Part shown: positions 4,037 through 59,090 of the stretch, piece after piece
Position numbering within the stretch: the stretch's first letter is position 1
Layout: every line of letters starts with the position of its first letter
Origin: a phage
DNA length: 64,000 nucleotides
Direction: 5' to 3' (one strand)
Assembly: GCA_018175075.1 (NCBI GenBank)
Contig: GCA_018175075.1_4100.1
Translations under genes and position numbers: made by a program
Notes under the pieces: model-generated
Told to the model about the DNA's origin: nothing
Databases searched by the model: none
Seen by the model: the letters and a program-made list of their open reading frames with translations, nothing else

Positions 4037-4228
4037 ATGTTGATTTATCAAAGTGATAATATTCGTGTTATGCAGCATCCCTACTTACAAATCTTTGATG
4101 TGCAGCAGTATATGGAAGGTGATGACCCAAGAACCTATGGTCGTAAGTATGATTACTTCACTGTAAAGCAGTGTAATAATATTAACGAAGTACGACAATT
4201 AGTTCAAGAACTTCAAAACAAAGGTTGA
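4037..4228 (+). CDS. hypothetical protein
   Basis: 63 aa from ATG with AAGGA SD (track start 3983 overlaps upstream gene). Confidence 0.55.
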   Translation: MLIYQSDNIRVMQHPYLQIFDVQQYMEGDDPRTYGRKYDYFTVKQCNNINEVRQLVQELQNKG

Positions 4229-4254
4229 CTTCGGTCAGCCTTTTTTGTTATAAT
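4223..4254 (+). promoter_or_regulatory. fused terminator-promoter hairpin module
   Basis: GGTTGAC-TTCG-GTCAGCC + T6; TTGACT in the stem is a -35, TATAAT 18 nt downstream. Confidence 0.65.
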
Positions 4255-4282
4255 TCTCTTAATAAATTAGAGGATTTTAATT

Positions 4283-4723
4283 ATGTATGTATATCGTTTT
4301 GAACTTAAATTTAGTTACATTGAACCTAACTTAGATCCTGCACGAACTGTAGGTCCGTTTGCACGGTATTCAACCAGATACAGTACTAAAAATGGATTTG
4401 ACCGTTTGCTCATGACTACACCTTCTCAATTCCAACCTGAACCAACTGAGGATGGGATCTATTCAATCAAAAGTGGATGGGTATTTGGCTGTCAAAGTTT
4501 GAAAGATTTGTTCAGATTCTTCACTATGGACTTAGGTAAATTGCATCGTGCTGGGTTTGCTATATCTGTATATGAAGTTCCAGACCACCATGTAGACATT
4601 GGTCGTAATCAGGTTCAGTACTATTGCGGTAGTGCTAAATTAGTTCGTATCATGTCAGTTAAGGAAGCAAAGGATGAGTTCCGACAAAGTAAAAGAGAAA
4701 CACATGAGGTAATATATGGATAA
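4283..4723 (+). CDS. hypothetical protein
   Basis: 146 aa; AGAGGA SD; first gene after hairpin-promoter at 4223. Confidence 0.65.
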   Translation: MYVYRFELKFSYIEPNLDPARTVGPFARYSTRYSTKNGFDRLLMTTPSQFQPEPTEDGIYSIKSGWVFGCQSLKDLFRFFTMDLGKLHRAGFAISVYEVPDHHVDIGRNQVQYYCGSAKLVRIMSVKEAKDEFRQSKRETHEVIYG

Positions 4724-5060
4724 AACTCAAATAGAATTAAAGAAATTTGTTTCATTCTATCTTCCTGATGACCCACGTAATTCACAAAAAGATATTGAAT
4801 ATTATAATATCCTATCTAAACAGTTAATGAGAAAGTTTCAACAGTGTTTAACTATATTCAATACAGATGGAAGACGTAGATACCGAATCGTTTCAATGAA
4901 TGATGAAAACGCAAATTTCTTTGATTACGATGTGGTTTTTAGAGCATATAATGATGATCGTATAAAATTAAATTATGATCAAATTATACTTGACCTGAAT
5001 GTTATATGTGTTATAATCACTCACGTAGCCGAACTTAATGGTTTTAAAGAATGGTATTGA
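4716..5060 (+). CDS. hypothetical protein
   Basis: 114 aa; GAGG SD inside upstream gene. Confidence 0.6.
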   Translation: MDKTQIELKKFVSFYLPDDPRNSQKDIEYYNILSKQLMRKFQQCLTIFNTDGRRRYRIVSMNDENANFFDYDVVFRAYNDDRIKLNYDQIILDLNVICVIITHVAELNGFKEWY

Positions 5061-5074
5061 ATAGAGGATAACAT

Positions 5075-5341
5075 ATGAAGCTTAAATTACAATATAATGG
5101 ATTTACTTTACGTAATGATACTGAATTTATTAATCGTTCTCCTGGTGCTGAACTGTTTTTACGAGAGATGAACATTCCTTTCATCATTACTACAGTGGGC
5201 GACCGTGAAGTTCTACAATACGCAGAGCATCCGATCATTGATGTTCCTTGGTACTCTGAGCATATGTACATGGATATGGCACGTCGCTACAACTGTAAGT
5301 TCGTAGTTGAAGGTGATAAAATTACAGTCGAATTTAAATAA
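5075..5341 (+). CDS. hypothetical protein
   Basis: 88 aa; AGAGGA SD. Confidence 0.6.
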   Translation: MKLKLQYNGFTLRNDTEFINRSPGAELFLREMNIPFIITTVGDREVLQYAEHPIIDVPWYSEHMYMDMARRYNCKFVVEGDKITVEFK

Positions 5342-5352
5342 GGTAAATTAAA

Positions 5353-5646
5353 ATGATCAGTACTTCAGTTAATGAAAGCATCGTCGCTGACGTAGAAATG
5401 GTTAAAGAATGTGCAGATGAAACTCTTCGTGATATGTACATTAATGATTTAATTACTGAATACGGTAGTCGTGGTGTACACGAATTTATTCGTTTAAGTG
5501 GAGAGTTGATGAAAAATCGAATTCGTATGAAGCTTAACGTACATCCAAAAGCATGGGCATTTACATTAAAATACGCAGAAGATATTGTTAATTTGCGTCG
5601 AACTGAAGTATATGAACGTTTGCACAATGGTATGTTAGATAAATGA
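5353..5646 (+). CDS. hypothetical protein
   Basis: 97 aa; AAGG SD; followed by terminator. Confidence 0.6.
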   Translation: MISTSVNESIVADVEMVKECADETLRDMYINDLITEYGSRGVHEFIRLSGELMKNRIRMKLNVHPKAWAFTLKYAEDIVNLRRTEVYERLHNGMLDK

Positions 5647-5655
5647 TTGTAAAAT

Positions 5656-5682
5656 AGGAATTCTTAAATGAATTCCTTTTTG
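5656..5682 (+). terminator. intrinsic terminator
   Basis: AGGAATTC-TTAAAT-GAATTCCT + T5. Confidence 0.65.
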
Positions 5683-5698
5683 TTTATAAGGTATAGTA

Positions 5699-5920
5699 AT
5701 GAAATATATAGTACTTGTACTGATATTATTCAGTACTGTTGTAAGTGCTAAACAAAAAGAATATGTTAAATGTATAAATTATGAAGAGAAATATGTTGAA
5801 ACATATAAAAAAAGTATAATTAAAAACGTTTCGATTACTAACAGAGCAACAATCATTGTACTTAAAAATGGGTTAATTATGCTATATAAACCACACGTTA
5901 AATGTGAAATTATTAATTGA
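5699..5920 (+). CDS. secreted small protein, two-Cys family
   Basis: signal peptide MKYIVLVLILFSTVVSAKQ; YVKCIN...HVKCEIIN. Confidence 0.6.
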   Translation: MKYIVLVLILFSTVVSAKQKEYVKCINYEEKYVETYKKSIIKNVSITNRATIIVLKNGLIMLYKPHVKCEIIN

Positions 5921-5927
5921 GGAAATT

Positions 5928-7072: not shown

Positions 7073-7456
7073 ATGGTTGATAAATGGAATAAGAAAGATC
7101 CATCACATGATGTTGATATTTCTGGTCTAGACAATGCACATAAGCACAAGTATCTAGATTCACTAGGTCTTCTAAAACCAGACCAAAGTCTTGCACATGA
7201 TCGTCCATCCCGTGAAAAAGCATTTAGCCTAGAATCACTAGGTCATGAGCTTAATCGTGTGTTTGAGGATCACCCAATCTATGTACGTGATATTATCGAG
7301 AAACTTAAAGTAACTCCTAAAGAGCACTTTAAAGCAACTGTACACTCTGCATTCCGTGCATTACATGAATCTCTAAAGAAAACTCACAATCTTCGTAAAA
7401 TTCATGATGAAATCGTGAATGCAATCGAAAGTGAAAAACATAAGTTCAAGAAGTAA
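7073..7456 (+). CDS. hypothetical protein (short paralog of 8800..10059)
   Basis: AGGAG SD; KYLDSLGLLKPDQ and IIEKLKVTPKEHFKA motifs shared with 8800 gene. Confidence 0.65.
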   Translation: MVDKWNKKDPSHDVDISGLDNAHKHKYLDSLGLLKPDQSLAHDRPSREKAFSLESLGHELNRVFEDHPIYVRDIIEKLKVTPKEHFKATVHSAFRALHESLKKTHNLRKIHDEIVNAIESEKHKFKK

Positions 7457-7461
7457 TAAAA

Positions 7462-7494
7462 GGGTTGACTAAGGTCAGCCCTTTGTTGTATCAT
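7462..7494 (+). promoter_or_regulatory. fused terminator-promoter hairpin module
   Basis: GGGTTGAC-TAAG-GTCAGCCC + TTTGTT; TTGACT -35, TATCAT -10. Confidence 0.55.
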
Positions 7495-7523: not shown

Positions 7524-7637
7524 ATGCAAGGTTTGAAATTTGTAGTTGCTGCACTCATCGCTGCTGTTGTAGTGGGTACAGTATGTTATTCAATTGACAC
7601 CTATATCAATACACCTAGTGTTGAACAAACCAAATAA
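7524..7637 (+). CDS. 37-aa single-pass membrane peptide
   Basis: below track cutoff; GAGG SD; VVAALIAAVVVGTV helix; first ORF after hairpin-promoter at 7462. Confidence 0.4.
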   Translation: MQGLKFVVAALIAAVVVGTVCYSIDTYINTPSVEQTK

Positions 7638-7645
7638 GGGATATC

Positions 7646-7909
7646 ATGGCTGAAACATTATCACTATATGCGTTAGTACTGTTATTTGTCGGATTTCTTC
7701 CCGCACTCATTACAGCCATTCGTGTTGTTAAACATGAAGCTGCATTGATTGTATGTAGTATTGGGTCGAACATTCTATTGTATTTCTTTTTGACAAATAC
7801 TATTGTACTGTTTGCTTTCTTTATCATGATTCTGTGGGTACTTGTAATTCTCGGATTCTTCATTTGGTCATTGGTTGATCCTAAGAAAAAATCAGGAGAA
7901 GTGAAATGA
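7646..7909 (+). CDS. small membrane protein
   Basis: 87 aa, three hydrophobic helices. Confidence 0.6.
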   Translation: MAETLSLYALVLLFVGFLPALITAIRVVKHEAALIVCSIGSNILLYFFLTNTIVLFAFFIMILWVLVILGFFIWSLVDPKKKSGEVK

Positions 7910-8202
7910 AATTAATTATAGCAATGATAATGTGTTTGGCTTTCCCTGTACTGGCTACTCCTAATCTGGACTGCACACTGTTGCGTTCAGATGGTGACAC
8001 ACTTGAAATCAACACATATGAACTCTTTGGTCCAAGTGTAGTGGAGAATGAAACCACCTACAATTTCAAAGCTATTGACTTTGAAGGTAATGTTCCAGTA
8101 CTAACTACAATGACTATTGACAAAACTACTTTACTCGGACGAATCACCACACAACGCGGAGAAAGTAAAACATTCACAGCGAAAGCTGACTGTAACTACT
8201 AA
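7906..8202 (+). CDS. secreted small protein, two-Cys family
   Basis: signal peptide MKLIIAMIMCLAFPVLATP; LDCTL...KADCNY. Confidence 0.65.
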   Translation: MKLIIAMIMCLAFPVLATPNLDCTLLRSDGDTLEINTYELFGPSVVENETTYNFKAIDFEGNVPVLTTMTIDKTTLLGRITTQRGESKTFTAKADCNY

Positions 8203-8223
8203 TGGTATAGTACAGTGAAAATA

Positions 8224-8254
8224 GGGTTGACTTCGGTCAACCTTTATATATAAT
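8224..8254 (+). promoter_or_regulatory. fused terminator-promoter hairpin module
   Basis: GGGTTGAC-TTCG-GTCAACCT; TTGACT-N16-TATAAT. Confidence 0.6.
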
Positions 8255-8267
8255 GGAAGAAATAAAC

Positions 8268-8795
8268 ATGGAACGTTGGAAATTAATTCCTGATTATGAC
8301 TATTCAATTTCTGATCATGGAAGAGTAAGAAACGAACAAACTGGATATATAAGTTGTGGATTTAAAAATAAAGATGGGTATGTGAAGGTCGATTTGTATC
8401 GCAATTCTGTGAAAAATAGAAAGGCGATTCATCGACTAGTAGCTGAAGCATTTTTACCACCACCCACACAGAAACAGTTACAGTGGGCGAGTAGAACAAA
8501 GAAAAAAGTTGTTCACATAAACCATAAAGATTGTAATAGAAGTAACAATCACTATTTGAATTTGGAATGGAACACAGCATCTGAAAACGTACTATATTCT
8601 TATTCACATGGTAACGCAACAACTAATCGTGGTGCTGCTGTGTTGACATGGGAAATTGTAAGAGAAATAAGAAAAGATTATAATGATAATTATAATGATG
8701 TGATAGAATATGCACGAGAAAATTGTAATAAATACCGTGTATGTAAAAAAACAATACGTCGTATTTTATACAATCAAACATGGATAGAGGATTAA
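8268..8795 (+). CDS. HNH homing endonuclease (NUMOD4-like N-terminus + HNH_3-type core)
   Basis: WKLIPDYDYSISDHGRVRN...; VVHINHKDCNRSNNHYLNLEWNTASEN; the 8253 ATG lies in the -10 box, so 8268 is preferred. Confidence 0.85.
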   Translation: MERWKLIPDYDYSISDHGRVRNEQTGYISCGFKNKDGYVKVDLYRNSVKNRKAIHRLVAEAFLPPPTQKQLQWASRTKKKVVHINHKDCNRSNNHYLNLEWNTASENVLYSYSHGNATTNRGAAVLTWEIVREIRKDYNDNYNDVIEYARENCNKYRVCKKTIRRILYNQTWIED

Positions 8796-8799
8796 AAAT

Positions 8800-10059
8800 A
8801 TGCCACAAGATAATGGGGATATGAAACATCGTAATGGTGGACTAGTACAACACTCGGATAAATGGGCCGACCGAAATCGTCGCAAAAATAGTTATCAAGC
8901 AGGACAAGGTTCACGTGGTTCCAGAAACCAAGGAACGGGACTTGCTGGTAAGGCAAACGCAGAAGCAGGTGAAGTTAAGAGTACTGAGAACATGACTGAG
9001 CTAGAAAAGCTACGTTATGTTAATTCATTGGGACTTCTTAATGCTACACAAAAACAACGTCTAGCTGATATGGAACGTGAAGAAAAAGAAAAGTCTGCTC
9101 CTGCGAAAGAAGAACCAAAACAAGAAGCACCAAAGGCGGTTAACCCTGTCAAAGAACTGTCTGATAAGTTAGGTAAGATTTTTGCTAATAAACCACAACT
9201 TATCCAAGGTATTGTGAAAGAATTGCAATCTGTACCTAAAGAAGAATTAAAAGTCAAAGCACAAGCTGTACTTGATGCAATGAGTGGAAATACCAGTACT
9301 GAACCAACTGAAGTATTCAGTACTATAATGCGTGCACTTGAAGGTACGCAACAAGGTGATGTGCCTGCACAAGAGGAAGTAAGTCTTGAAAGCGTACTTA
9401 AAACATTTGATAGTATTGGTAAAGAAGACCGTGCTAATGCTCAACAAGTTAAGAATGTACTAGCTAAGTTAGAAAACCGTCTGGAAGGTAAAGACGATAA
9501 GATTAAATTAGTATCTGATGCAGTTAACGATGCACTTAAATCTTATGTACAAGGTGAAAAGAGTCGTTTTGTAACTGCAATGGATGCTGCATTCAATACT
9601 ATGAAAAAGTATGAAGCTGATCATGGTGAGAAGGTTACACGAGATGGTTATCTGATGCGTGATGATGAAGAAGGTGCAGTAGAACAGAATGATGTTCATT
9701 CAGACGAAGAAATTGATGACATGGAAGCTGAACTGTCACAAGACCGCCAAATGACTGAAAAATCCCATAACGAACTACAGAAATTAATGCAATGGGTTGC
9801 AGATGTTGGTGAAAAAGCTGGTGCTGATAAGAAGAGTATAAACCGAAATCTTAGTTGGATTAAAGATAAAGTTGGTAACAACGCTCGTAAACTACAAAAA
9901 GCGTGGACTGATGTAGTGAATGGTGCTGTTGACATTGATGTTGAATCCGGTGAGGCATATGATTATGCATTGACTACACTTGATGACTCTTTCCGTGATT
10001 ACGAAAATGGAAATGTAACTCCTTGGGAAAAGGATATCATGAGCAAATACGGTAAATGA
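8800..10059 (+). CDS. acidic low-complexity protein
   Basis: 419 aa, E/K/D/A-rich; AGAGGA SD; LRYVNSLGLLNATQ motif. Confidence 0.65.
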   Translation: MPQDNGDMKHRNGGLVQHSDKWADRNRRKNSYQAGQGSRGSRNQGTGLAGKANAEAGEVKSTENMTELEKLRYVNSLGLLNATQKQRLADMEREEKEKSAPAKEEPKQEAPKAVNPVKELSDKLGKIFANKPQLIQGIVKELQSVPKEELKVKAQAVLDAMSGNTSTEPTEVFSTIMRALEGTQQGDVPAQEEVSLESVLKTFDSIGKEDRANAQQVKNVLAKLENRLEGKDDKIKLVSDAVNDALKSYVQGEKSRFVTAMDAAFNTMKKYEADHGEKVTRDGYLMRDDEEGAVEQNDVHSDEEIDDMEAELSQDRQMTEKSHNELQKLMQWVADVGEKAGADKKSINRNLSWIKDKVGNNARKLQKAWTDVVNGAVDIDVESGEAYDYALTTLDDSFRDYENGNVTPWEKDIMSKYGK

Positions 10060-10069
10060 TAAAACAAAA

Positions 10070-10095
10070 GGTTGACTTCGGTCAGCCTTTTTTTT
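10070..10095 (+). terminator. intrinsic terminator of the same hairpin family
   Basis: GGTTGAC-TTCG-GTCAGCC + T8; no good -10 downstream. Confidence 0.65.
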
Positions 10096-10131
10096 GTAAA
10101 TACAAAAGAGGAATTAAGAAGAGGGATTACA

Positions 10132-11146: not shown

Positions 11147-11154
11147 TAATAAAA

Positions 11155-11187
11155 GGGTTGACTTCGGTCAGCCTTTTTTGTTATGAT
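11155..11187 (+). promoter_or_regulatory. fused terminator-promoter hairpin module
   Basis: GGTTGAC-TTCG-GTCAGCC + T6; TTGACT-N18-TATGAT. Confidence 0.6.
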
Positions 11188-11215
11188 GTTGGTATTAACT
11201 ACAGAGGATAAAGTA

Positions 11216-11857
11216 ATGACTAAGCAAGACATATTCAAAACTTTAATTGACATTTTGCGTCCATCAAAAACTCGTTGTGCGATGGAGTTTGATATTCCTT
11301 ATGCTGAACGCGTAATCTTTCCACAAGTTAAAGCTGCTGGACTTACTTTGCTTGGAATGGGGATGTACTCTGTAGTAGTTGAACATAAAAACTATCATGG
11401 ACGTGCATTTAAAGTAACCACTTCACGCTGGGATGGTTTTCGTGCTTATGCAAAGTACTGCATTGAAAACGCAGGAACCAAGTTTCTTCCAGTGATCTAC
11501 AGTGCCAACGAACAAGGAAACTTTGGATGGTATGAGATGGACAAGTACTATCCTATAATTAAACAAAAAAATAATTATGATGACTTTGTTAGTACTAAAA
11601 TTGGAGATTTATATTCTTATGCACATGCTGGTCAGTACGCTACTTCAGTGAATGATATGCGTGGAAATTCTGAAGAGATTGCTATTGCAACGGTCGCTGC
11701 TAACATCATGAAAGAGTTTCACGGGCGTTTTGTACCAGACATTCATTCAAGTAATGTGATGATGGATAAAGATGGCAATGTATTCATTACTGATCCTCTT
11801 TCGTGTGATGTACGTAGAGAAATACCAGTTACTGAAGAAGATCCAGTTTTTTATTGA
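11216..11857 (+). CDS. protein-kinase-like protein (mini-kinase 1)
   Basis: LLGMGMYSVVV...RAFKV (G-loop/Lys), PDIHSSNVMMDKDGNVFITDP (catalytic loop, DxG); GAGGA SD. Confidence 0.55.
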   Translation: MTKQDIFKTLIDILRPSKTRCAMEFDIPYAERVIFPQVKAAGLTLLGMGMYSVVVEHKNYHGRAFKVTTSRWDGFRAYAKYCIENAGTKFLPVIYSANEQGNFGWYEMDKYYPIIKQKNNYDDFVSTKIGDLYSYAHAGQYATSVNDMRGNSEEIAIATVAANIMKEFHGRFVPDIHSSNVMMDKDGNVFITDPLSCDVRREIPVTEEDPVFY

Positions 11858-11918
11858 CAGAACTGATGTTCTGGTGTATTCTTAATAAACCATAAAAATT
11901 GCGGTAAAGGATAAAATC

Positions 11919-12550: not shown

Positions 12551-12892
12551 ATGATTTATTACACTAACATGTTTGCCTATGCTGTTGCTTGCATTTACAT
12601 TGTTTACTTCTTATTCGGTGGAGTACTGTGCTTCTTTAAGTACAAAACGTTGTTCAACCGAATGTACCCAAATCATCCAATTGTAGTTGTACTTTTGATT
12701 CTTTCAGTTTCTCAAATAATCGTTGAAACTACAATGGGTATCAGTAGTGTACATTATAGTTTTGGCACTATAGTAATTATTACTATGCTTATTGCATACA
12801 TTTTAGTACTTGGATATGGTATCTTTGGTAATATTGGTATGAAAATGTATCATCGAATTAAAACATTACGTGATAATCTACCGGAGCGTTGA
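12551..12892 (+). CDS. membrane protein, TM-FK paralog family
   Basis: ATG start (track uses TTG at 12545); CFFKYKTLFNRMYP; tail LRDNLPER. Confidence 0.65.
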   Translation: MIYYTNMFAYAVACIYIVYFLFGGVLCFFKYKTLFNRMYPNHPIVVVLLILSVSQIIVETTMGISSVHYSFGTIVIITMLIAYILVLGYGIFGNIGMKMYHRIKTLRDNLPER

Positions 12893-12893
12893 T

Positions 12894-13238
12894 ATGTATA
12901 ATTTGAACCTAATCTCATATATTATAACAACACTGTTTACATTCTATGCCTTTGTTGGTATAATCCTACTGTACTTTAAATTTTATAAAGTGTTTAACCG
13001 TTTCTATCCTTCAATGGAGAATGAGTTTTTCTTTGTGTTGTACGTAGGTTACACATTAATGGCTACATGTTTCACTGTAGCCGATGGTGTCATCGGCATT
13101 AAAACTGATTCCCCAAATGGTAGTACGCTGGTTGCATTTATTCTTACTGGATTCCTTGCAACTTATATTGCCTTCATTACAACATGGTCAGTGGTTGAAT
13201 TTCTCTTGCGACTACGAAAGAATATGCCGAATCGATAG
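12894..13238 (+). CDS. membrane protein, TM-FK paralog family
   Basis: GGAG SD; LYFKFYKVFNRFYP; tail LRKNMPNR. Confidence 0.65.
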   Translation: MYNLNLISYIITTLFTFYAFVGIILLYFKFYKVFNRFYPSMENEFFFVLYVGYTLMATCFTVADGVIGIKTDSPNGSTLVAFILTGFLATYIAFITTWSVVEFLLRLRKNMPNR

Positions 13239-13247
13239 GAGACATAT

Positions 13248-13502
13248 ATGTTTGCGTTGCGTAATAAAAACACTAAAGAATTATTATGTATTGATACCGT
13301 ATGGGATTGTGCGGGATCAACTACAGTTCTTGAAGAAGGAACTGGATATTGCGTGTTTGTTGTTCATGATAGGAATGAACTCGAATTATTACTTGCTGAG
13401 TTCAATGCTGGTGGTAATCCTAACAGTACTGAATACCCTGAGATTATCAATCCAGCACCACCAGGCTCTTATGAAATTCTACAACTGTGGGAGTTGAAGT
13501 AA
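13248..13502 (+). CDS. hypothetical protein (paralog of 15366..15635)
   Basis: 84 aa; AGGAG SD; MFALRNKN... resembles MYALYNKE... Confidence 0.6.
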   Translation: MFALRNKNTKELLCIDTVWDCAGSTTVLEEGTGYCVFVVHDRNELELLLAEFNAGGNPNSTEYPEIINPAPPGSYEILQLWELK

Positions 13503-13882
13503 TGCGTCAAATGCACAAAGTAACCGAGCTAAACAAGCGTCTGGTTAAACAATCAATGTTCGAGGATAAAGAGTCTTATTATAACTTTAAACGTGCTGTA
13601 GAGGCTGCTATCCACATTCAGAAGCTTAAAGAACGTGGTTGTATTATTCTGGAAAATGGGTCGGAAGTTGTAACGGATGACTTTAGTGTAGCGTTTGATG
13701 TTTCACCTGACGGGACGCTATCAATGCCCCGCTTAGGAACTGGAAACATGACTGTTTGGGTTGGCTTCACTATGGGGAATGTACCTGGTACTGTGTACGT
13801 AGATGATGCGGAATTGAAAGACAGTTTCAAAAACTTATCTTATCTTGAACCACAATACGCACATGAAATGAATTTATTTTGA
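13502..13882 (+). CDS. hypothetical protein
   Basis: 126 aa from MRQMHK; TAATG coupling. Confidence 0.6.
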   Translation: MRQMHKVTELNKRLVKQSMFEDKESYYNFKRAVEAAIHIQKLKERGCIILENGSEVVTDDFSVAFDVSPDGTLSMPRLGTGNMTVWVGFTMGNVPGTVYVDDAELKDSFKNLSYLEPQYAHEMNLF

Positions 13883-13883
13883 G

Positions 13884-13941
13884 TTGACAAACACATTCAG
13901 TACTGTATAATGCTTATCAAGGGGATGAACTTCTCATCCCT
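13884..13941 (+). promoter_or_regulatory. promoter + 5'UTR hairpin unit
   Basis: TTGACA-N16-TGTATAAT, then GGGATGA-ACTTC-TCATCCC, then GAGGA SD. Confidence 0.6.
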
Positions 13942-13958
13942 ACAATCGAGGAACTACC

Positions 13959-14513
13959 ATGATTACTTTTAAGAAAACTGCTAACCACATCCATGAAATC
14001 TACATTAACGGTCACAAAGCTGGCCTTCTTCGTTTACTCGCCCATCATCCTGATGTTACCGTATCTGATAATGAACCTAAAGATTGGCGTGTATTTTTCT
14101 TTGGAAAGTACAGTGATTTTCAAGTATCAAACCTGAAGAACATTCGTTCAGTATGCACGTTAACTGAAATTAAAGAAAAGTTAGAAAAAGCATTGAAAAC
14201 TAATCCAGATGGTGTTCTTCCACCTGATAACTTTGTAGAGAAAGGTTATGCATTAGCTCATTTCAAAGATGGTACTATTCAATCTATCAGTACTGAATAT
14301 GAATATCAATGGACTGAGTACTTCACTTATGGATCGCGTAATACATTGATGGCTTCACGTAGTAAATTGGAAGAAGTACTGACTCGTATGAATGAACGCG
14401 AACGTCAATTTTATGACAAACCAGAAATGTGGAGTTCAACTTACATTGACCGTATTGACTATGTTATTATGACTCCAATCTTTGACACTGCTTACTATGA
14501 TTCTTTGAAATAA
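13959..14513 (+). CDS. hypothetical protein
   Basis: 184 aa; own promoter + GGGATGA/TCATCCC leader hairpin + GAGGA SD. Confidence 0.65.
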   Translation: MITFKKTANHIHEIYINGHKAGLLRLLAHHPDVTVSDNEPKDWRVFFFGKYSDFQVSNLKNIRSVCTLTEIKEKLEKALKTNPDGVLPPDNFVEKGYALAHFKDGTIQSISTEYEYQWTEYFTYGSRNTLMASRSKLEEVLTRMNERERQFYDKPEMWSSTYIDRIDYVIMTPIFDTAYYDSLK

Positions 14514-15641: not shown

Positions 15642-15670
15642 TTGACACCGTACTCATTTAACTGTATTAT
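15642..15670 (+). promoter_or_regulatory. sigma70-type promoter
   Basis: TTGACA-N17-TATTAT. Confidence 0.55.
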
Positions 15671-15700
15671 GTATGTACACCAACTAATGAGGAATCGGAA

Positions 15701-16060
15701 ATGGCATCTTTATCTGAAATCACTGAACTGAATCCACTGGTAATTAGTACTGTTCAACGCACCAAGACGTTTTACTTCCGTCCTGCTGATGGATGGAAAC
15801 GTGGAATGAATGGTGACTATCGAGTACTGGAAGATTCGCTCATCGAGCGTATCAACTCTGAACTACAGAAGTATGAAGGTGTTAAAGTTGTCCGTTCAAC
15901 TTCTCGTTATTTTGAGTACTACATTGAGTCTTCAACTGTAAATGAAAACTCATCATTCTCGGTGGATAACACTGATATTCTTCGCAATGCAGTTGGTTTG
16001 CTATGCAACATTGCAGAAGAAATGGGATTAACTATCACCACAATGAGTGAGTTAGAATAG
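15701..16060 (+). CDS. hypothetical protein
   Basis: 119 aa; TTGACA-N17-TATTAT promoter at 15642; GAGGA SD. Confidence 0.6.
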   Translation: MASLSEITELNPLVISTVQRTKTFYFRPADGWKRGMNGDYRVLEDSLIERINSELQKYEGVKVVRSTSRYFEYYIESSTVNENSSFSVDNTDILRNAVGLLCNIAEEMGLTITTMSELE

Positions 16061-16070
16061 AATAAAAAAA

Positions 16071-16102
16071 GGGTTGACTTAGGTCGGCCCTTTTGCTATT
16101 AT
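16071..16102 (+). promoter_or_regulatory. fused terminator-promoter hairpin module
   Basis: GGGTTGAC-TTAG-GTCGGCCC + T4; TTGACT-N17-TATTAT. Confidence 0.65.
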
Positions 16103-16130
16103 ATCTATATCGAAACGAAGGAGACAAACC

Positions 16131-16904
16131 ATGACCCGTCAAGAGAAAGCAATCCAAATCGAAAAAAACTTCAATAGCATGATGGCTGCACTGGAATGCC
16201 TTCTTGATACACAAGCTAACTCTATCAACTCTCTGATCGTATCAGGTAAAGGTGGTGTTGGTAAAACTTATAACGTTGACCAACGGTTGCAGAAAGCTGA
16301 TGATAACTTTGAAATCGACTACAAGAAAATCAGTGGTAAAGTAACTACTTTGGGTCTGTACGAAGCACTGTATCGTTCACGTCATGCCGCATCAGTACTG
16401 TTACTTGATGACGTTGATATCTTCTCTGACGAGACTAACATTGATTTGCTTAAAGCTGTGTTGGATACGTCAGAGAAGCGTGTAGTTTCTTACGCGACTT
16501 CTGCTAAGTACCTGGAACAGCAGGGTATCCCTAAGCAGTTTGAATTCCGTGGTAAAGTAATCTTTCTGACTAACAAAAACCTGTCACAGATTGCTAAAGG
16601 TAAAAGCAGCTTAGCACCACACATCGATGCACTGATCACTCGTAGTATCTTTGTTGACCTGCAACTGTTCACCAACGAAGAAGTGATGATTCACATTGAG
16701 AACATCATGAACAAAACTAACATCCTTGAAAACAATGGTGTTAACAAAAATGGTTGTAAAGCAATCCTGAATTGGATGCTGAACAACGAAGAACGTTTGC
16801 GTAGTCCATCACTGCGTATGCCAGTACTGATCGCTGGTTTGTATAATAAATTCCCATACGATTGGGAATCAATGGCAGAGAATATGTTCCTTGAGAAAAT
16901 TTAA
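16131..16904 (+). CDS. P-loop NTPase (AAA-like)
   Basis: Walker A SGKGGVGKT, Walker B VLLLDDVD; AAGGAG SD. Confidence 0.8.
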   Translation: MTRQEKAIQIEKNFNSMMAALECLLDTQANSINSLIVSGKGGVGKTYNVDQRLQKADDNFEIDYKKISGKVTTLGLYEALYRSRHAASVLLLDDVDIFSDETNIDLLKAVLDTSEKRVVSYATSAKYLEQQGIPKQFEFRGKVIFLTNKNLSQIAKGKSSLAPHIDALITRSIFVDLQLFTNEEVMIHIENIMNKTNILENNGVNKNGCKAILNWMLNNEERLRSPSLRMPVLIAGLYNKFPYDWESMAENMFLEKI

Positions 16905-20993: not shown

Positions 20994-21024
20994 CGTATTA
21001 TCTTTCTTTTTAATTAATGTTGAC

Positions 21025-24955: not shown

Positions 24956-24965
24956 AAATTCCTCC

Positions 24966-39431: not shown

Positions 39432-39437
39432 GTTTTA

Positions 39438-40654: not shown

Positions 40655-40685
40655 AAACTATTTTAAAAGTACATGTAGAAAGTAC

Positions 40686-42260: not shown

Positions 42261-42340
42261 TAGTATAGTTACAATTGTGCACCCGGTGGGTTAGCTGTTG
42301 TCATGGGGTATATTATGCCAGTACTGGATAGTGCTGTCAA
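42250..42340 (-). ncRNA. GGGTGC-core RNA element, copy 4 (with promoter), convergent with copy 3
   Basis: TTGACA-N17-CATAAT then ..ACCCACCGGGUGCACAAUUGUAACUAU. Confidence 0.35.
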
Positions 42341-44668: not shown

Positions 44669-44768
44669 CAGTACTGAATCATTTAATAGACGGATCTCGG
44701 CACCCGGTGGGTTAGTGACTGTTTCGTCTTGATGTAGTAATTATGCCAGTACTGGATGCACTTGTCAA
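44639..44768 (-). ncRNA. GGGTGC-core small RNA candidate, copy 5 (promoter to hairpin)
   Basis: TTGACA-N17-CATAAT (44763-44740); ..GACGAAACAGUC..ACCCACCGGGUGC..; ends at CGGGGAG/CTCCCCG hairpin. Confidence 0.4.
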
Positions 44769-47064: not shown

Positions 47065-47208
47065 ATGAAAACTTGTCAATGTGGTCAGAAATCTATTACT
47101 GGTTTAAAGCGGGGCGTTGCTCTTTGCCAGTACCATTATAATTTACAAGTATGGGGTAAAGAATGGGCCGACCAGGTGGAAGCAGCAAAGAAAGCAAAAA
47201 GTAAGTAA
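47065..47208 (+). CDS. 47-aa Cys-rich small protein
   Basis: below track cutoff; promoter+hairpin+AAGGA SD; MKTCQCGQ...ALCQYH. Confidence 0.5.
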   Translation: MKTCQCGQKSITGLKRGVALCQYHYNLQVWGKEWADQVEAAKKAKSK

Positions 47209-47268
47209 AAATATTATCACAGTACTATTGACATAGTTTGATAGTACTGGCATAATAGATTTTATCAA
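47207..47268 (+). repeat. type-2 ~60-bp promoter repeat
   Basis: AAAATATTATCACAGTACTATTGACATAGTTTGATAGTACTGGCATAAT..; TTGACA-N17-CATAAT. Confidence 0.6.
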
Positions 47269-47287
47269 AACAACTGAGGAAAATAAA

Positions 47288-47500
47288 ATGGCTATCATCA
47301 CTAAAATCAAAGTTAACAAGACTATCGTTAAACTGGCAGAAGTGAAAGAAGGTTATAAAGTATCTTGGTGCGGTATGTATCGGACGTTCGCAGATATAGA
47401 TGATGCAATCAATTACTACACTGACACGGTTAAAAACTTTGTTCGTGCTGATGTGGTTATGGCAGTGGCAACATATAAAGCAGCGAAAGAAAGTAAGTAA
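47288..47500 (+). CDS. hypothetical protein (paralog of 50419..50598)
   Basis: MAIITKIKVNK...; type-2 promoter repeat upstream. Confidence 0.65.
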   Translation: MAIITKIKVNKTIVKLAEVKEGYKVSWCGMYRTFADIDDAINYYTDTVKNFVRADVVMAVATYKAAKESK

Positions 47501-47560
47501 AAATATTATCACAGTACTATTGACATAGTTTGATAGTACTGGCATAATAGATTTTATCAA
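47499..47560 (+). repeat. type-2 ~60-bp promoter repeat
   Basis: near-identical to 47207 copy, including the upstream gene's last codons (AGTAAGTAA). Confidence 0.6.
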
Positions 47561-47589
47561 GACAACATATTAATTTAAGGAATACAAAA

Positions 47590-49473: not shown

Positions 49474-49483
49474 ATGAAAAAAG

Positions 49484-49570
49484 TGGTTGACTTCGGTCAG
49501 CCATTTTGCTATTATATATTCATTGAGAGATAGCTCACTAGCCCACAGGGTGCGGAAGTGTATCTATTAT
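49484..49570 (+). promoter_or_regulatory. fused terminator-promoter hairpin + GGGTGC-core element, copy 6
   Basis: TGGTTGAC-TTCG-GTCAGCCA; TTGACT-N17-TATTAT; ..UGAGAGAUAGCUCA..GCCCACAGGGUGC. Confidence 0.55.
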
Positions 49571-49687
49571 ATAAGTATTGAGTACTGAAAACTATTTTTA
49601 AAAAGTACTTGCAAACTATCTCAATAGGCGTATAATGTTTTACATCGAAAGGGGAAACGGTTTCCCCTGGTAATAAGGAAACAAATC

Positions 49688-51139: not shown

Positions 51140-51235
51140 TTGACAATATCCTCCAGTACTGGCATAATACTTACATCAAGACGAGAACGTCACTAACCCA
51201 TAGGGTGCACAAATGTAACTATATAACATCGATCA
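51140..51235 (+). ncRNA. GGGTGC-core RNA element, copy 7 (with promoter)
   Basis: TTGACA-N17-CATAAT then ..GACGAGAACGUC..ACCCAUAGGGUGCACAAAUGUAACUAU. Confidence 0.35.
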
Positions 51236-51464: not shown

Positions 51465-51722
51465 ATGGCAGTAGGATACGCGAAAGACGGGGCCGAACAA
51501 GACGAGATTAACGCAGTGATTCAGGCCGCCGTTAACCACGCTAGAAAGCAAATTAACGCACAAAGAGAATCACTAGTACATTGCCTCGACTGCGGCGATA
51601 AAATCCCTGAGAATCGACGCCAGGCCGTTATAGGGTGCATGTATTGTATTACTTGCCAGGCGGATCATGATAGTACTTTTAAAAGAGATCCGCGTAATTG
51701 TTGGCATAGATCTATGAGATAA
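51465..51722 (+). CDS. TraR/DksA-family C4 zinc-finger protein
   Basis: CLDCGDKIPENRRQAVIGCMYCITCQ = CxxC-N17-CxxC with the IPxxRR motif. Confidence 0.8.
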   Translation: MAVGYAKDGAEQDEINAVIQAAVNHARKQINAQRESLVHCLDCGDKIPENRRQAVIGCMYCITCQADHDSTFKRDPRNCWHRSMR

Positions 51723-51786
51723 AAAGTAATTGACAGTACTGAAAGATAGTGTATAATGTTTTATATCTTAAATGAGGATAGAAATC

Positions 51787-52143
51787 ATGGGAATACAACA
51801 TATCACGCGTACTACTGACAATGGCGAGATCACTGGTTATCAGGTACAGGGCAAAGTAGCACAATTGCAGTACTGGTTTGTTAAACGTGGAATCATTGCA
51901 CCGGATCTTGATTATGACCGTGTTGCTTTCATTGATTCTCTTTATGTTGATCCTGATAGTCGGGGCAATGGTGAAGGTAACGAATTAATGAATGCCTTTA
52001 TCGATGCCGCCGATGATTCAGATTGTATCATCTTAGAATGCGATACGGGAGAAGATAACGCCTTTAATCTTAAAGAATGGTACGAAGGTTTCGGATTCGA
52101 GGTATTGATAGATAGTGAATATCCTATCATGATTTTATCATAG
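51787..52143 (+). CDS. GNAT-family N-acetyltransferase
   Basis: YVDPDSRGNGEGNELMNAFID (motif A-like), WYEGFGFE; GAGGA SD. Confidence 0.7.
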   Translation: MGIQHITRTTDNGEITGYQVQGKVAQLQYWFVKRGIIAPDLDYDRVAFIDSLYVDPDSRGNGEGNELMNAFIDAADDSDCIILECDTGEDNAFNLKEWYEGFGFEVLIDSEYPIMILS

Positions 52144-52215
52144 TACTTGCATTTAGTTTTCAGTACTGTTATAGTACTTACATCAAGGGGAAACATCTTC
52201 CCCTACTAAGAGGAA

Positions 52216-53463: not shown

Positions 53464-53477
53464 AAATAATTGAAAAA

Positions 53478-53560
53478 GGGATTGACTCCGGTCAGTCCCT
53501 TTGCTATTATATACGCATAGAAACAAATCAGCCCACCGGGTGCATAAATGTATCTATTGT
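53478..53560 (+). promoter_or_regulatory. fused terminator-promoter hairpin + GGGTGC-core element, copy 8
   Basis: GGGATTGAC-TCCG-GTCAGTCCC; TTGACT-N17-TATTAT; ..GCCCACCGGGUGC.. Confidence 0.55.
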
Positions 53561-53600
53561 TTGCTGGTGGCTAGTACTGAAAACTATTTTAAAAAAGTAC

Positions 53601-56731: not shown

Positions 56732-56745
56732 AAAAGATTAAAAAA

Positions 56746-56832
56746 GGGATTGACTCCGGTCAGTCCCTTTGCTATTATATATTCATTGAGAGATAACTCA
56801 CTGACCCATAGGGTGCATAAGTGTATCTATTA
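56746..56832 (+). promoter_or_regulatory. fused terminator-promoter hairpin + GGGTGC-core element, copy 9
   Basis: same hairpin; TTGACT-N17-TATTAT; ..UGAGAGAUAACUCA..ACCCAUAGGGUGC. Confidence 0.55.
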
Positions 56833-56953
56833 TATAAGTATTCAGTACTGGAAACTATTTTTAAAAAGTACTTGCATTGTACTTAGAATCAAGTATAATG
56901 TTTTATATCGAGAGGGGGAAATGGTTCTCCCTGGTACATTAAGGAATAAAATC

Positions 56954-57261: not shown

Positions 57262-57534
57262 ATGTCCAGCTACTCCGCTACTATGATCATTAAAGATATG
57301 AACGGTAATCCTACTTCTGCTGGTGGATCATTTGGAAACATTAATTTAGATGGTCGGTTATCCATGCAATCAGCCATTGATGCAGCTAAAGAAGTTTTTA
57401 AGAATGAATGTACTGTAAGCAAGCTGGATTATATGGGATTCGCTATCGAGAAAACTAATCGTTTTGTGAACTACAAAAAGCCTATGATGATTGATACTAA
57501 CCTGAAAGCTAACGAAGTGGAATACTTATTATGA
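57262..57534 (+). CDS. hypothetical protein
   Basis: 90 aa; promoter+hairpin. Confidence 0.65.
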   Translation: MSSYSATMIIKDMNGNPTSAGGSFGNINLDGRLSMQSAIDAAKEVFKNECTVSKLDYMGFAIEKTNRFVNYKKPMMIDTNLKANEVEYLL

Positions 57535-57722
57535 CAGTAGAAGAAGTTAAAAAAGTACTGGCAGTACTACGCTATCATAATCATTGTAAGGTGAAGAATG
57601 ATCCTGATTATCTTGATTCATCCCTGGAGGAAGACACCTTAAACGCGATAAGCTATATGCAAACATTAGCAAAGCGTATGACCGAAAAGAATAGGCCGGA
57701 CTATATAGGAAATAAAATTTAA
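57531..57722 (+). CDS. hypothetical protein
   Basis: 63 aa; ATGA coupling. Confidence 0.6.
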   Translation: MTVEEVKKVLAVLRYHNHCKVKNDPDYLDSSLEEDTLNAISYMQTLAKRMTEKNRPDYIGNKI

Positions 57723-57809
57723 AAAGTACTTGCATTGTAGTTAGATTAACGTATAATGTTTTATATCGAGAGGGGGAAATGGTTTCCCCTCAAGTCCAGG
57801 AGATACACC

Positions 57810-58073
57810 ATGAACACTATCGAAATCACTATCAATGCACACGTATACGACAACGTAGTACTGCAAACTACTATGACCGCTAATGATACCAGTACTTTGC
57901 GGAATACTGTTATTAGTGCCGTATGTGCTGCAATCGGTGATGTCGCCCTGGAAAATGCAAAACACGTAAACGATGGTTTCACTATGTGCAAACGTGATAA
58001 CGCAAAACATATCATCGTGGAAGGTTACGGCGGTGTAGAATTTAATGTTTATATGAAAAAAGTACTTGCATAA
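57810..58073 (+). CDS. hypothetical protein
   Basis: 87 aa from MNTIEITI; 3' end (KKVLA*) overlaps the next -35. Confidence 0.65.
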   Translation: MNTIEITINAHVYDNVVLQTTMTANDTSTLRNTVISAVCAAIGDVALENAKHVNDGFTMCKRDNAKHIIVEGYGGVEFNVYMKKVLA

Positions 58074-58140
58074 TAACTAAAACAAAGTATAATGTTTTGC
58101 ATAGGGGGAGATATCCTCCCCCACTAAAAGGAGTAATAAA

Positions 58141-58365
58141 ATGGCTAACTTTGATGAACTGATGCGGGAAGTAGCTACCCTGGCAGAAGAGAAGAAATCA
58201 TTCGATTCTATCTATAACACCGCTCACCGTGATTCAGTACTGGCATGTACTCAGGATCAAAAAGATGAACTAATCGCCACCTATCATGAAGCATGGAAGT
58301 ACTACCGCCAATGGGAGAAAGAAGAAAGCGAGTCTACCATCAACGGCATCAATAATCTAATCTAA
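58141..58365 (+). CDS. hypothetical protein
   Basis: 74 aa; promoter+GGGGGAG/CTCCCCC hairpin. Confidence 0.65.
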   Translation: MANFDELMREVATLAEEKKSFDSIYNTAHRDSVLACTQDQKDELIATYHEAWKYYRQWEKEESESTINGINNLI

Positions 58366-58371
58366 AAGTTT

Positions 58372-58425
58372 TATTTCAGTACTATTGACATAGCTTGATA
58401 GTACTGATGTAATAACTTTACTAAC
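58372..58425 (+). repeat. type-2 promoter repeat (variant)
   Basis: ..TCAGTACTATTGACATAGCTTGATAGTACTGATGTAAT. Confidence 0.55.
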
Positions 58426-58441
58426 TACAAGGGGAAACATC

Positions 58442-58699
58442 ATGGAACAATTCACACAATATCGGGTAAATCCTCAAGCTATGGCCTACGTAGAAGACCA
58501 TAAAACGTTACCAGTACTGCAACCAGTTAAAGGCCATATCTATCGTGGCCTTGCCTGGGATACGGCCCAGGATGGATATAAAACCGTCGCAGTGGGGATG
58601 TATTGCGGGAATGGTGAATGGTTTGATCCTAACAATCCGATTGCACTTGACAGTACTGAAAAAATGAAATGGGCCGACTACATCGAAGATATTTCATAA
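58442..58699 (+). CDS. hypothetical protein
   Basis: 85 aa; type-2 promoter repeat upstream. Confidence 0.6.
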   Translation: MEQFTQYRVNPQAMAYVEDHKTLPVLQPVKGHIYRGLAWDTAQDGYKTVAVGMYCGNGEWFDPNNPIALDSTEKMKWADYIEDIS

Positions 58700-58789
58700 A
58701 AACTATTTGACAGTACTAACCAGTAATGTATAATGTTTTACATAGAGCGGGGGAATAGTTCTCCCGCCAATAGTTTGGAGTAAAACATT

Positions 58790-58990
58790 ATGTCTATCGC
58801 TATCGCCCTGGTTGAAGTACTGAAAGAAGCTAAAGCCAACCTTATCGATGTACAGATTAAGGAATTGCAAAACGGCTTAATCGGCTGTACTTGTACCGCT
58901 GGCGGTGCGGCAGACTATCGAGAACACGAATCACTCGAATCACTGGTTCGGTATCTTACCATGATCGTTGATGATTGGAGAATCATCTAA
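58790..58990 (+). CDS. hypothetical protein
   Basis: 66 aa; promoter+hairpin. Confidence 0.6.
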   Translation: MSIAIALVEVLKEAKANLIDVQIKELQNGLIGCTCTAGGAADYREHESLESLVRYLTMIVDDWRII

Positions 58991-59009
58991 CAAAAAAAGA
59001 ATAAAAAAA

Positions 59010-59090
59010 GGGATTGACTCCGGTCAGTCCCTTTGCTATTATATACGCATAGACAAAAACTAGCCCACAGGGTGCATAAGTGTATCCAAA
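59010..59090 (+). promoter_or_regulatory. fused terminator-promoter hairpin + GGGTGC-core element, copy 10
   Basis: same hairpin; TTGACT-N17-TATTAT; ..UAGACAAAAACUA..GCCCACAGGGUGC. Confidence 0.55.

Follow-up and report, generated by a model that had tools for sequence, protein, structure and literature searches.

Can one short run of bases end a transcript as an RNA hairpin and, as DNA, serve the start of the next? The question is raised by a hairpin element of about 40 bases that recurs in a stretch of phage DNA of 64,000 nucleotides (nt) (GenBank assembly GCA_018175075.1, contig GCA_018175075.1_4100.1), referred to here as the window. A reading of the bare DNA (the sequence-only reading) had listed ten copies, each said to be both a terminator and the −35 element of the following promoter, and had likened them to the promoter-early stem-loop (PeSL) cassettes of T4-type phages. 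We put the probability that the ten cassettes combine a terminator hairpin with the −35 of the next promoter at roughly 75%. Three lines of evidence support this dual role: the association of a −10 hexamer with these hairpins, the invariance of their 5′ arm, and the fact that they replace ordinary promoters upstream of a conserved leader RNA.

The window was assigned by megablast to the Asteriusvirus group of jumbo coliphages (genomes of ∼350 kb), which also includes 121Q, PBECO4, G17, and slurp01; phAPEC6 and the window are 99% identical across 4 to 12 kb, and Klebsiella phage RaK2, Cronobacter phage GAP32, and Pectobacterium phage CBB are its kin. Genes run on the + strand in 1 to 20 kb and 34 to 64 kb and on the − strand in 20 to 34 kb. 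In the 64-kb window, ARAGORN detected no tRNAs and no Rfam family reached the gathering threshold; Rfam searches with E values of up to 5 on the 39.9- to 44.8-kb region returned noise only. The hairpins are surrounded mainly by small hypothetical open reading frames (ORFs). BLAST located 6 + 4 cassette places in each of the related 350-kb genomes, and the window holds its ten copies in 64 kb.

All ten copies were found where the sequence-only reading had placed them, all on the + strand, and the stems, loops, and variants that it described were correct on inspection. The sequence TTGACNNNNGTCA matches 11 times in the window (0.59 expected from shuffles), and GTTGACTTCGGTCAGC matches 7 times with up to 2 mismatches (0.02 expected). 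The eleventh TTGACNNNNGTCA match, at 33819, falls within an ORF of the minus-coded region and was discarded as a chance occurrence; a general hairpin scan detected no further cassette copies in the window. From 5′ to 3′, the cassette consists of an A-rich run (present before all ten copies), a clamp of two to four G residues, TTGAC, a 4-nt loop, GTCAG, a C clamp, a T-tract, and (TGn)TATnAT. It lies 6 to 22 nt 3′ of a + strand stop codon in all ten cases, with the copy at 4223 overlapping its stop, and each copy is followed by a + strand ORF. Eight copies have C(UUCG)G or C(UCCG)G as closing pair and loop. In nine the first T of TTGAC stands opposite G, so that the sense RNA has a U·G wobble where the antisense RNA has a C/A mismatch. 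The hexamer TTGACT, which had been placed in the 5′ stem arm, is present in all ten. A −10 at a distance of 16 to 18 nt had been claimed for nine copies, and it is there in those nine as TAnnnT with at least five of six matches to TATAAT (spacers, in order, of 18, 18, 16, 18, 17, 17, 17, 17, and 17 nt; hexamers TATAAT, TATCAT, TATAAT, TATGAT, and five times TATTAT); in seven copies the −10 is extended by TGn, a feature absent from the earlier description. The T-tract, described as a general feature, is well developed (6 to 8 T) at 4223, 10070, and 11155 and short (3 to 4 T) at the other seven, with TTTATAT at 8224. A Shine-Dalgarno (SD) sequence and ATG follow 55 to 62 nt past the hairpin start at 4223, 7462, 10070, 11155, and 16071, and none was found at a comparable distance for copy 8224. 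At the four copies of the early region (49484, 53478, 56746, and 59010), the ATG is 200 to 300 nt away, and the leader RNA and a second promoter lie between.

Copy 1 (4215 to 4254) has its A-rich run at 4215 to 4222, the hairpin GGTTGAC-TTCG-GTCAGCC at 4223 to 4240, and six T residues at 4241 to 4246. Its −35 TTGACT (4225 to 4230) is separated by an 18-nt spacer from TGt-TATAAT (4249 to 4254), with the next ATG at 4283; the TGA of the upstream ORF (4226 to 4228) lies inside the −35, as the TGA of TTGAC. The fold has −13.9 kcal/mol (z = −5.0), and the hairpin is an annotated terminator in G17. Copy 2 (7454 to 7494; GGGTTGAC-TAAG-GTCAGCCC at 7462 to 7481, tail TTTGTTG, −17.3 kcal/mol, z = −5.0) follows a stop codon that ends at 7456; its −35 (7465 to 7470) and TATCAT (7489 to 7494) are 18 nt apart, and the next ORF (37 amino acids [aa]) starts with ATG at 7524. 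Copy 3 (8216 to 8254) is the perfect palindrome GGGTTGAC-TTCG-GTCAACC (8224 to 8242, −12.1 kcal/mol) with the weak tail TTTATAT, a −35 at 8227 to 8232, a 16-nt spacer, and TATAAT at 8249 to 8254; it sits directly 5′ of an HNH/NUMOD4 homing endonuclease ORF (8253 or 8271 to 8795), in a segment absent from G17. Copy 4 (10062 to 10100) repeats the hairpin of copy 1 at 10070 to 10087, with eight T residues (10088 to 10095), −14.3 kcal/mol, TTGACT at 10072 to 10077, and the next ATG at 10132; its −10 position offers only TGTAAA, and this copy appears to be a terminator without a credible promoter. Copy 5 (11147 to 11187; GGGTTGAC-TTCG-GTCAGCC at 11155 to 11173, six T residues, −15.1 kcal/mol, z = −5.5) has its −35 at 11158 to 11163, an 18-nt spacer, and TGt-TATGAT at 11182 to 11187. 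The ATG at 11216 belongs to a protein kinase, which carries the annotation of a host transcription inhibitor in 121Q. Copy 6 (16063 to 16102; GGGTTGAC-TTAG-GTCGGCCC at 16071 to 16090, −17.5 kcal/mol, z = −5.3) has the 3′ arm GTCGG, two U·G pairs, and four T residues, and its −35 (16074 to 16079), 17-nt spacer, and TGc-TATTAT (16097 to 16102) are followed by ATCGAAACGAAGGAG and an ATG at 16131.

The four early-region copies are more uniform, all with a 17-nt spacer and TGc-TATTAT. Copy 7 (49476 to 49515) has the hairpin TGGTTGAC-TTCG-GTCAGCCA at 49484 to 49503 (four T residues, −15.9 kcal/mol), a −35 at 49487 to 49492, and a −10 at 49510 to 49515. Copy 8 (53470 to 53510) has GGGATTGAC-TCCG-GTCAGTCCC at 53478 to 53499 (three T residues, −19.5 kcal/mol, z = −5.5), with −35 and −10 at 53482 to 53487 and 53505 to 53510. 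The same hairpin, with the same −19.5 kcal/mol, recurs in copy 9 (56738 to 56778; hairpin 56746 to 56767, z = −6.7, −35 at 56750 to 56755, −10 at 56773 to 56778) and in copy 10 (59002 to 59042; hairpin 59010 to 59031, z = −6.8, −35 at 59014 to 59019, −10 at 59037 to 59042).

Is the hairpin a terminator? All ten sense-strand RNAs fold stably (−12 to −19.5 kcal/mol, z = −4.4 to −6.8), and the antisense folds are 5 to 6 kcal/mol weaker (for instance, −8.7 and −13.2 versus −13.9 and −19.5 kcal/mol in the sense strand), because the U·G pair becomes a C/A mismatch. The same hairpins are annotated as ARNold terminators in the G17 GenBank record, and the orthologous GGGTTGACTTCGGTCAGCCC hairpins are listed as terminators in Table S8 of the phage CBB paper and are absent from its promoter table. 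With respect to a rho-independent terminator, a hairpin in sense position after a gene is present in ten of ten copies; the textbook U-rich tract is about 7 to 9 nt long, and here it comprises 6 to 8 T in three copies (4223, 10070, and 11155) and 3 to 4 T followed by G in the rest. Position, strand specificity, tetraloops, and tails all agree with a predicted terminator, and partial termination would be expected at the seven short-tail copies. Three points weigh against the interpretation: with only 3 to 4 T after the stem, termination at those seven copies may be weak; several CBB copies have almost no T-tract, and the hairpin may serve otherwise there; and at 8224 the tail is poor and the 5′ untranslated region almost nonexistent.

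A 20-bp inverted repeat centered on a −35 is also the classic layout of an operator, and some CBB copies that retain the hairpin nearly lose the T-tract, so that the element could be read as the binding site of a dimeric phage repressor that shuts off early genes and has no role as an RNA terminator. We regard this as very improbable. As DNA, the repeat is systematically imperfect: among 92 unique elements (a set in which the search held the 5′ arm fixed), the base opposite the first T of TTGAC is G in 73 cases, A in another 12, and T or C in the last 7, and the 3′ arm varies by transitions that preserve G·U pairs in RNA. The outer clamps change in a compensatory manner (GG/CC, GGGA/TCCC, TGG/CCA, GAGG/CCTC, and AGTAC/GTACT), and the 92 elements carry 30 different loops, with UUCG and GNRA types enriched and UUCG the commonest (28 of 92). 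The symmetry of a dimeric operator is thus not what was found, in that the 5′ arm is constant, the 3′ arm variable, the clamps covarying, and the loops free; the better sense-strand fold and the invariable position directly after a stop codon also speak against an operator. Slide controls for the outer G/C clamp gave no discrimination and were uninformative because of the runs of G, C, and T.

Is it also a promoter? The simplest alternative is that these are plain intrinsic terminators, with TTGAC a duplicated sequence of the hairpin family and TATnAT a chance product of AT-rich DNA. The terminator-only annotations in the G17 record and the CBB paper agree with it, as does the absence of a −10 at copy 10070, and promoter-like matches in 1 to 20 kb are at shuffle level overall. 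This alternative is nevertheless improbable, since the −10 is tied to the TTGAC hairpins and not to terminators generally. In a sample made up of the window and a 40-kb RaK2 locus, a TAnnnT −10 at 16 to 18 nt followed 19 of 22 TTGAC hairpins versus 2 of 23 other sense-strand terminator-like hairpins (Fisher's exact test, P = 1.2 × 10−7).

The second argument against plain terminators is the asymmetry of the arms, invariant on the 5′ side and wobble-varying on the 3′ side. For a noncircular scan of IMG/VR, we used the frame AAGGG-N14-CCCTTTTGNTATTAT, which leaves the inner stem free. It gave 29 unique matches, and in 24 of them N14 consisted of TTGAC, a loop, and an arm; across these 24 the 5′ arm is invariant, with 10 different loops and four 3′ arms (GTCAG, GTCGG, GTCAT, and GTTGG), all of which still pair through G·U. 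The 5′ arm is therefore constrained by more than pairing. The promoter elements are also kept across genera. RaK2, from a different genus, has 12 to 13 copies, which retain TTGAC, the T-tract, and TG(c/t)TAT(t/a)AT despite loops as different as TTCG, GAAA, TAAG, TTAG, TTAT, and TTTG; CBB and EC.P1 show the same pattern of varied loops and kept promoter elements, and TGn and spacing are likewise maintained in KVP40-type phages and in Brochothrix phage A9.

The third argument comes from the leader RNA described below. A sigma-70 promoter precedes 63 of its 66 copies; 26 of these promoters are of the hairpin type, and 37 are canonical (TTGACA-N16/17-TATAAT). The end of the −10 and the start of the leader model are 2 to 4 nt apart with both types, apart from 5 of the 63 matches, which start 8 nt after the −10 and are truncated local alignments. 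The equal distance indicates that the hairpin elements stand where ordinary promoters stand. A sigma-70 promoter with an UP element and an extended −10 would have an A-rich tract around −40 to −46, TGn at −15/−14, and a transcription start 6 to 8 nt past the −10; an A-rich run lies upstream of all ten window copies, TGn is present at seven, and the position of the leader behind both promoter types is indirect support for such a start. A promoter role is weakened by the missing −10 at 10070, by the suboptimal 18-nt spacers at 4223, 7462, and 11155, and by the shuffle-level frequency of sigma-70-like matches in 1 to 20 kb, which means that isolated hexamer matches count for little alone; many copies are, moreover, paralogous or orthologous, and the counts overstate the number of independent events. 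As a separate observation, the record of Yersinia phage fHe-Yen9-03 (LT960552; L144 1519 to 1548) annotates a −35 and a −10 on an orthologous hairpin element, placing the −35 not on TTGACT but on TTCGGT, which is made up of the loop and bases of the 3′ arm, and annotating no terminator.

On the dual-function explanation, each copy would act as a compact insulator that separates neighboring early or accessory genes in a RaK2-like jumbo coliphage, whose early transcription would be carried out by the host sigma-70 RNA polymerase, a dependence supported for the clade by the RpoD-like early promoters predicted in phage CBB; termination, initiation, and their efficiencies we infer from the sequence. 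At the RNA level, the G-clamped stem, the C(UUCG)G or C(UCCG)G tetraloop, and the U-tract would end the upstream transcript, efficiently with 6 to 8 U (4223, 10070, and 11155) and partially with 3 to 4 U. At the DNA level, the A-tract would sit at the position of an UP element, TTGACN (inner 5′ arm plus first loop base) would form the −35, the remaining loop, 3′ arm, and T-tract would fill the 16- to 18-bp spacer, and the −10 would usually be extended as TG(c/t)TAT(t/a)AT. The polymerase is predicted to stop about 7 to 9 nt past the stem, just where the −10 begins, and to restart about 7 nt past the −10, so that roughly 12 to 15 nt would separate the old 3′ end from the new 5′ end. The geometry also imposes a trade-off. 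Three loop nucleotides, the 3′ arm of 8 to 9 nt, the T-tract, and Gn must all fit into a 17-bp spacer, which explains why the copies with the best promoters (17-bp spacer and TGc-TATTAT) are limited to three or four T and why the T8 copy has no −10; the T6 copies have 18-bp spacers. Among the six copies of the first 17 kb, the five that have a −10 (all except 10070) would drive the next gene via a leader of 22 to 30 nt, and the four early-region copies would launch the conserved structured leader RNA before a second promoter.

How does the element relate to known systems? The PeSLs of RB49 and phi1 combine a strong sigma-70 promoter with a stem-loop terminator and fall into five subclasses by stem position, one of which has the stem-loop over the −35; both activities were shown by lacZ fusions (Arbiol 2010, PMC2839356). 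The consensus for nt-1/KVP40 is A3-4 G3-loop-C3 T3-4 and TTGYVH-N17-TAWWAT (Comeau, Arbiol & Krisch 2014, PMC4122927). The proposed likeness to PeSLs holds, as the composite promoter/stem-loop layout and the published consensus are both seen in the window copies. The copies are intergenic, lie between codirectional ORFs in AT-rich stretches with an upstream stop codon, carry a −35/∼17 bp/−10 promoter (except 10070) and a stable stem-loop that overlaps the −35, and are dispersed in many copies among small variable ORFs; an SD and start codon at the 3′ end are present at five copies, doubtful at 8224, and absent at the four early-region copies. What the sequence-only reading had singled out as a departure, a promoter folded into the stem itself, is not new, given the −35-overlapping subclass of Arbiol 2010 and the element shared by KVP40-type phages. 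The cassette is a new example of the known PeSL design and not a new mechanism. We found no report of PeSLs in RaK2-like phages in the papers searched, and the RaK2 genome paper contains nothing on promoters or terminators.

The closest counterparts are those of KVP40 and phi-pp2, which read AAAAAGGGTTGAC(N4)GTCAGCCCTTTc..gTATTAT, with the same order, spacing, and mostly the same sequence as the window copies; like them, these KVP40-type (Schizotequatrovirus) PeSLs are intergenic, among small ORFs, and followed by ATCGAAACGA-type starts. KVP40-type PeSL phages belong to the Straboviridae, whereas the window phage is a RaK2-like jumbo phage (Asteriusvirus) of a type with about ten copies per 350-kb genome, and, unlike KVP40-type PeSLs, four of its copies would drive the leader RNA and a second promoter, not a gene directly. 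In the legend of the 2014 figure (PMC4122927), the stem is said to be "just upstream" of its promoter, and no emphasis is placed on a −35 inside it. RB49/phi1 PeSLs share with the window copies the sigma-70 promoter and terminator, the AT-rich upstream part, and the downstream SD/ATG; their stems are polyG/polyC and mostly lie between −35 and −10 or over the −10, whereas those of the window lie over the −35. Brochothrix phage A9 has a near-identical 37-mer, and convergence is plausible there because the spacer geometry tightly fixes the design. The stretch after the −10, (A)TCTACATCGAAACGAA, is common to RaK2-like and KVP40-type hairpin-promoters (window 16103 to 16125; locus L002 at 12444 and 20008; locus L005 at 20011 and 34494; many IMG/VR loci) and is similar to CAT(N)GA, with which canonical promoters have their start region; it could represent a common initial transcribed sequence.

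Two further systems are similar in part. Lambdoid morons (promoter-gene-terminator units) are autonomous transcription units, like the unit formed by copy 5 and its kinase gene, which one phage can have and a close relative lack as a whole; the promoter and terminator of a moron are separate, unrelated sequences, and morons have no repeated shared cassette. C(UUCG)G tetraloop hairpins were reportedly noted by Tuerk and coworkers in 1988 in intercistronic regions of T4; these are, like the window cassettes, unusually stable and located at cistron ends, and they are not reported to contain the −35 of a following promoter. In bacteria, a bioRxiv preprint (10.64898/2026.08.19.745784) claims, genome-wide, an extensive coupling of the initiation and termination sites of adjacent transcription units.

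Does the repeat itself, as portable homology, move genes? PeSL mini-circles are documented in RB49/phi1, and the main selected role could be that of a recombination site that shuffles gene cassettes, with the transcription signals merely tolerated. Some differences between relatives fit. EC.P1 (87% identity), compared in its locus L145 at 8240 to 8960 and 12699 to 14308 with window positions 11147 to 11907 and 15643 to 16686, lacks the hairpin-plus-kinase unit (∼11147 to 11907) and has an extra ORF of 171 aa with a hairpin-promoter on either side, the two being nearly identical (L145 13115 and 13698), at the place of the window's single copy 16071, the topology that Arbiol et al. describe for RB49 ORF192. 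The best-mapped indel at a hairpin points the other way. Positions 7562 to 8850, with two small ORFs, copy 8224, and the HNH_3/NUMOD4 endonuclease (8253 or 8271 to 8795), are absent from G17; as a hairpin-junction event this was rejected, since the junctions are not at hairpins and the segment carries the endonuclease, and homing seems the likelier cause. The gene-content comparison that the sequence-only reading had called for thus gave a mixed answer, with suggestive topologies in EC.P1 and G17 junctions that lie away from hairpins. Only in the canonical promoter class did a crossover fall cleanly within repeats: the cassette 51741 to 52160 (ORF 51772 to 52143) is absent from slurp01 (L004 ∼7798 to 7802), the crossover falls within the canonical promoter repeats 51719 to 51766 and 52140 to 52196, and the slurp01 promoter is a chimera of both. 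This indel appears to be PeSL-type recombination in a non-hairpin promoter class. The homology offered by a hairpin copy is just ∼40 to 45 bp, and the conservation of each functional subelement across genera points to selection on transcription; recombination as the main selected role is therefore unlikely. Recombination between copies, like the mini-circles, was demonstrated in RB49/phi1, and the window offers suggestive topologies only, so that module shuffling at hairpins is only suggested. Such a role is weakly documented and would be compatible with the dual-function explanation. A 292-bp tandem duplication (47198 to 47274 and 47490 to 47566), also absent from slurp01, contains a promoter within a repeat that is 99% identical.

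What do the early-region copies transcribe? A conserved stretch of ∼55 nt follows copies 49484, 53478, 56746, and 59010, and a second promoter comes after it. A covariance model seeded with 16 gap-free copies found 11 copies in the window (40.1 to 59.1 kb; 7 on the + strand and 4 on the − strand), 66 in the window plus 28 related loci, and 8 more in further RaK2/121Q loci; all of these 74 matches lie in RaK2-like jumbo-phage DNA. The model had no matches in KVP40-type loci, the leader RNA had no match in Rfam, and a literature search with the core sequence returned only unrelated primers. Matches of a 16-mer core in small IMG/VR contigs were dismissed as chance, the model confirming RaK2 and 121Q only. 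The leader of copy 7 (49518 to 49572, 68.8 bits) has the P1 hairpin, CUA, GCCCACAGGGUGC, and GUAUCU, followed by a canonical second promoter (49609 to 49636) and ATG at 49688; that of copy 9 (56781 to 56835, 67.8 bits) precedes a second promoter at 56865 to 56921. Copies 8 (53513 to 53562, 38.9 bits, without the P1 insertion) and 10 (59051 to 59094, 43.1 bits) are followed by short forms. The remaining + strand copies lie at 40260 to 40316 (weak), 42199 to 42252, and 51173 to 51227, and the − strand copies at 40109 to 40163, 40324 to 40378, 42260 to 42303, and 44681 to 44735, some of the latter being stand-alone units with their own terminator (44681 to 44735). The leader also occurs in loci L002, L003, L004, L010, L017, L048, L062, L100, L125, L128, L134, L140, L146, L154, and L158.

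The RNA would start near CAU, 7 nt past the −10, and its order is the P1 hairpin, CUA, a core hairpin RCCC-AYN-GGGU(G) (core CCCAYNGGGUG), and a YRYYY segment. P1 has 4 bp and an A-rich loop, with compensatory changes in all four pairs among seed sequences that were picked for having P1; in a fixed-geometry test it was found in 22 of 39 sequences versus 15% of shuffles, a first, looser shuffle test (61% versus 45%) having been uninformative. The core hairpin is 99.6% paired, with two double changes from C-G to U-A. Pairing of YRYYY with GGGUG holds in 96.6% of cells versus 30 to 71% when slid, and this helix and the core hairpin are mutually exclusive because both use GGGUG. RNAalifold on a plain MAFFT alignment recovered only the 4-bp core hairpin because half of the sequences are without P1. 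A pairing between the P1 loop and GUAUCU, judged by eye, fits some copies (AGAUA/UAUCU and GACG/CGUC) and not others and was dropped. We hold it to be probable, and well supported, that the leader represents a genuine family of structured RNAs.

The leader might act in cis in antitermination or attenuation, stabilize the 5′ end, or be a small RNA; an antitermination or switch function is speculation. A single circuit formed by hairpin terminator-promoters and leader RNA is doubtful, if conceivable: the leader could act in cis on the transcribing polymerase, like put or nut RNAs, or could switch between its two mutually exclusive helices, and in either form it would decide on read-through of the next hairpin terminators. 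Within the same doubtful reading, stop and restart could also be physically coupled, via a roadblock or polymerase hand-over, because termination would occur inside the footprint of a polymerase at the overlapping promoter. The leader also occurs in convergent pairs with facing promoters ∼95 nt apart, in the window (42199 to 42303 and 40260 to 40378) and in CBB (L003 984 to 1100, 3794 to 3910, and 20816 to 20932), so that each transcript would contain its own motif and the complement of the other, a long inverted repeat.

The hairpin copies share the early region with another promoter cassette, of which the + strand holds at least 21 to 24 copies between 39397 and 59628 (examples at 41139, 44327, 49015, 49602, 52761, 54321, 57172, and 58700). 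It reads AAAAAGTAC-TTGCAA/TTGACA-N16-TATAAT-nnTTTACATCGA, with a leader hairpin GGGGAnnnnTCCCC, an SD, and ATG, and appears to be the main early-promoter class; promoter-like sites in 44 to 64 kb number 110 versus 70 in shuffles. The palindrome TCAGTACTGA, which may be a protein-binding site, occurs 16 times (0.06 expected), densely in a 1.9-kb ORF-free stretch (38800 to 40700) and scattered to 53171. AGTACT is also found within canonical promoters (AAAGTACTTGCA and TAGTACTGTATAAT), some CBB hairpin clamps, and minus-strand terminators. The same ORF-free stretch contains an array with an 8-nt period (39845 to 39944; GGCTAGAC / GGCTAAAC / GGATGGCT) that looks iteron-like. Elsewhere, on the − strand at 20097 to 34289, lie eleven tandem paralogues of ∼250 to 410 aa, the one scanned (33105 to 34289) having RCC1-like repeats. 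Most are followed by the terminator hairpin GCCAGTAC-nnn-GTACTGGC, and most are preceded by a conserved TATAGTATAATGAATAAAGGAGG, which makes the array another repeated terminator-plus-start cassette, here without a recognizable −35.

The hairpin cassette shows how far two signals can overlap, as the 3′ half of a minimal terminator just fills a spacer of 17 bp; this fit probably explains why RaK2, KVP40-type vibriophages, and a Brochothrix phage all have a near-identical 37-mer. For synthetic biology, it would be a ready-made compact insulator part. The leader RNA, which was reached via the cassettes, may be the more interesting object. For the RaK2-like phages themselves, whose hairpins are listed only as terminators in the G17 record and the CBB paper, the finding would mean that most of these hairpins are also sigma-70 promoters and that the early transcription units of 121Q, PBECO4, phAPEC6, RaK2, GAP32, and CBB would have to be redrawn; the kinase that inhibits host transcription, for example, would gain a promoter of its own.

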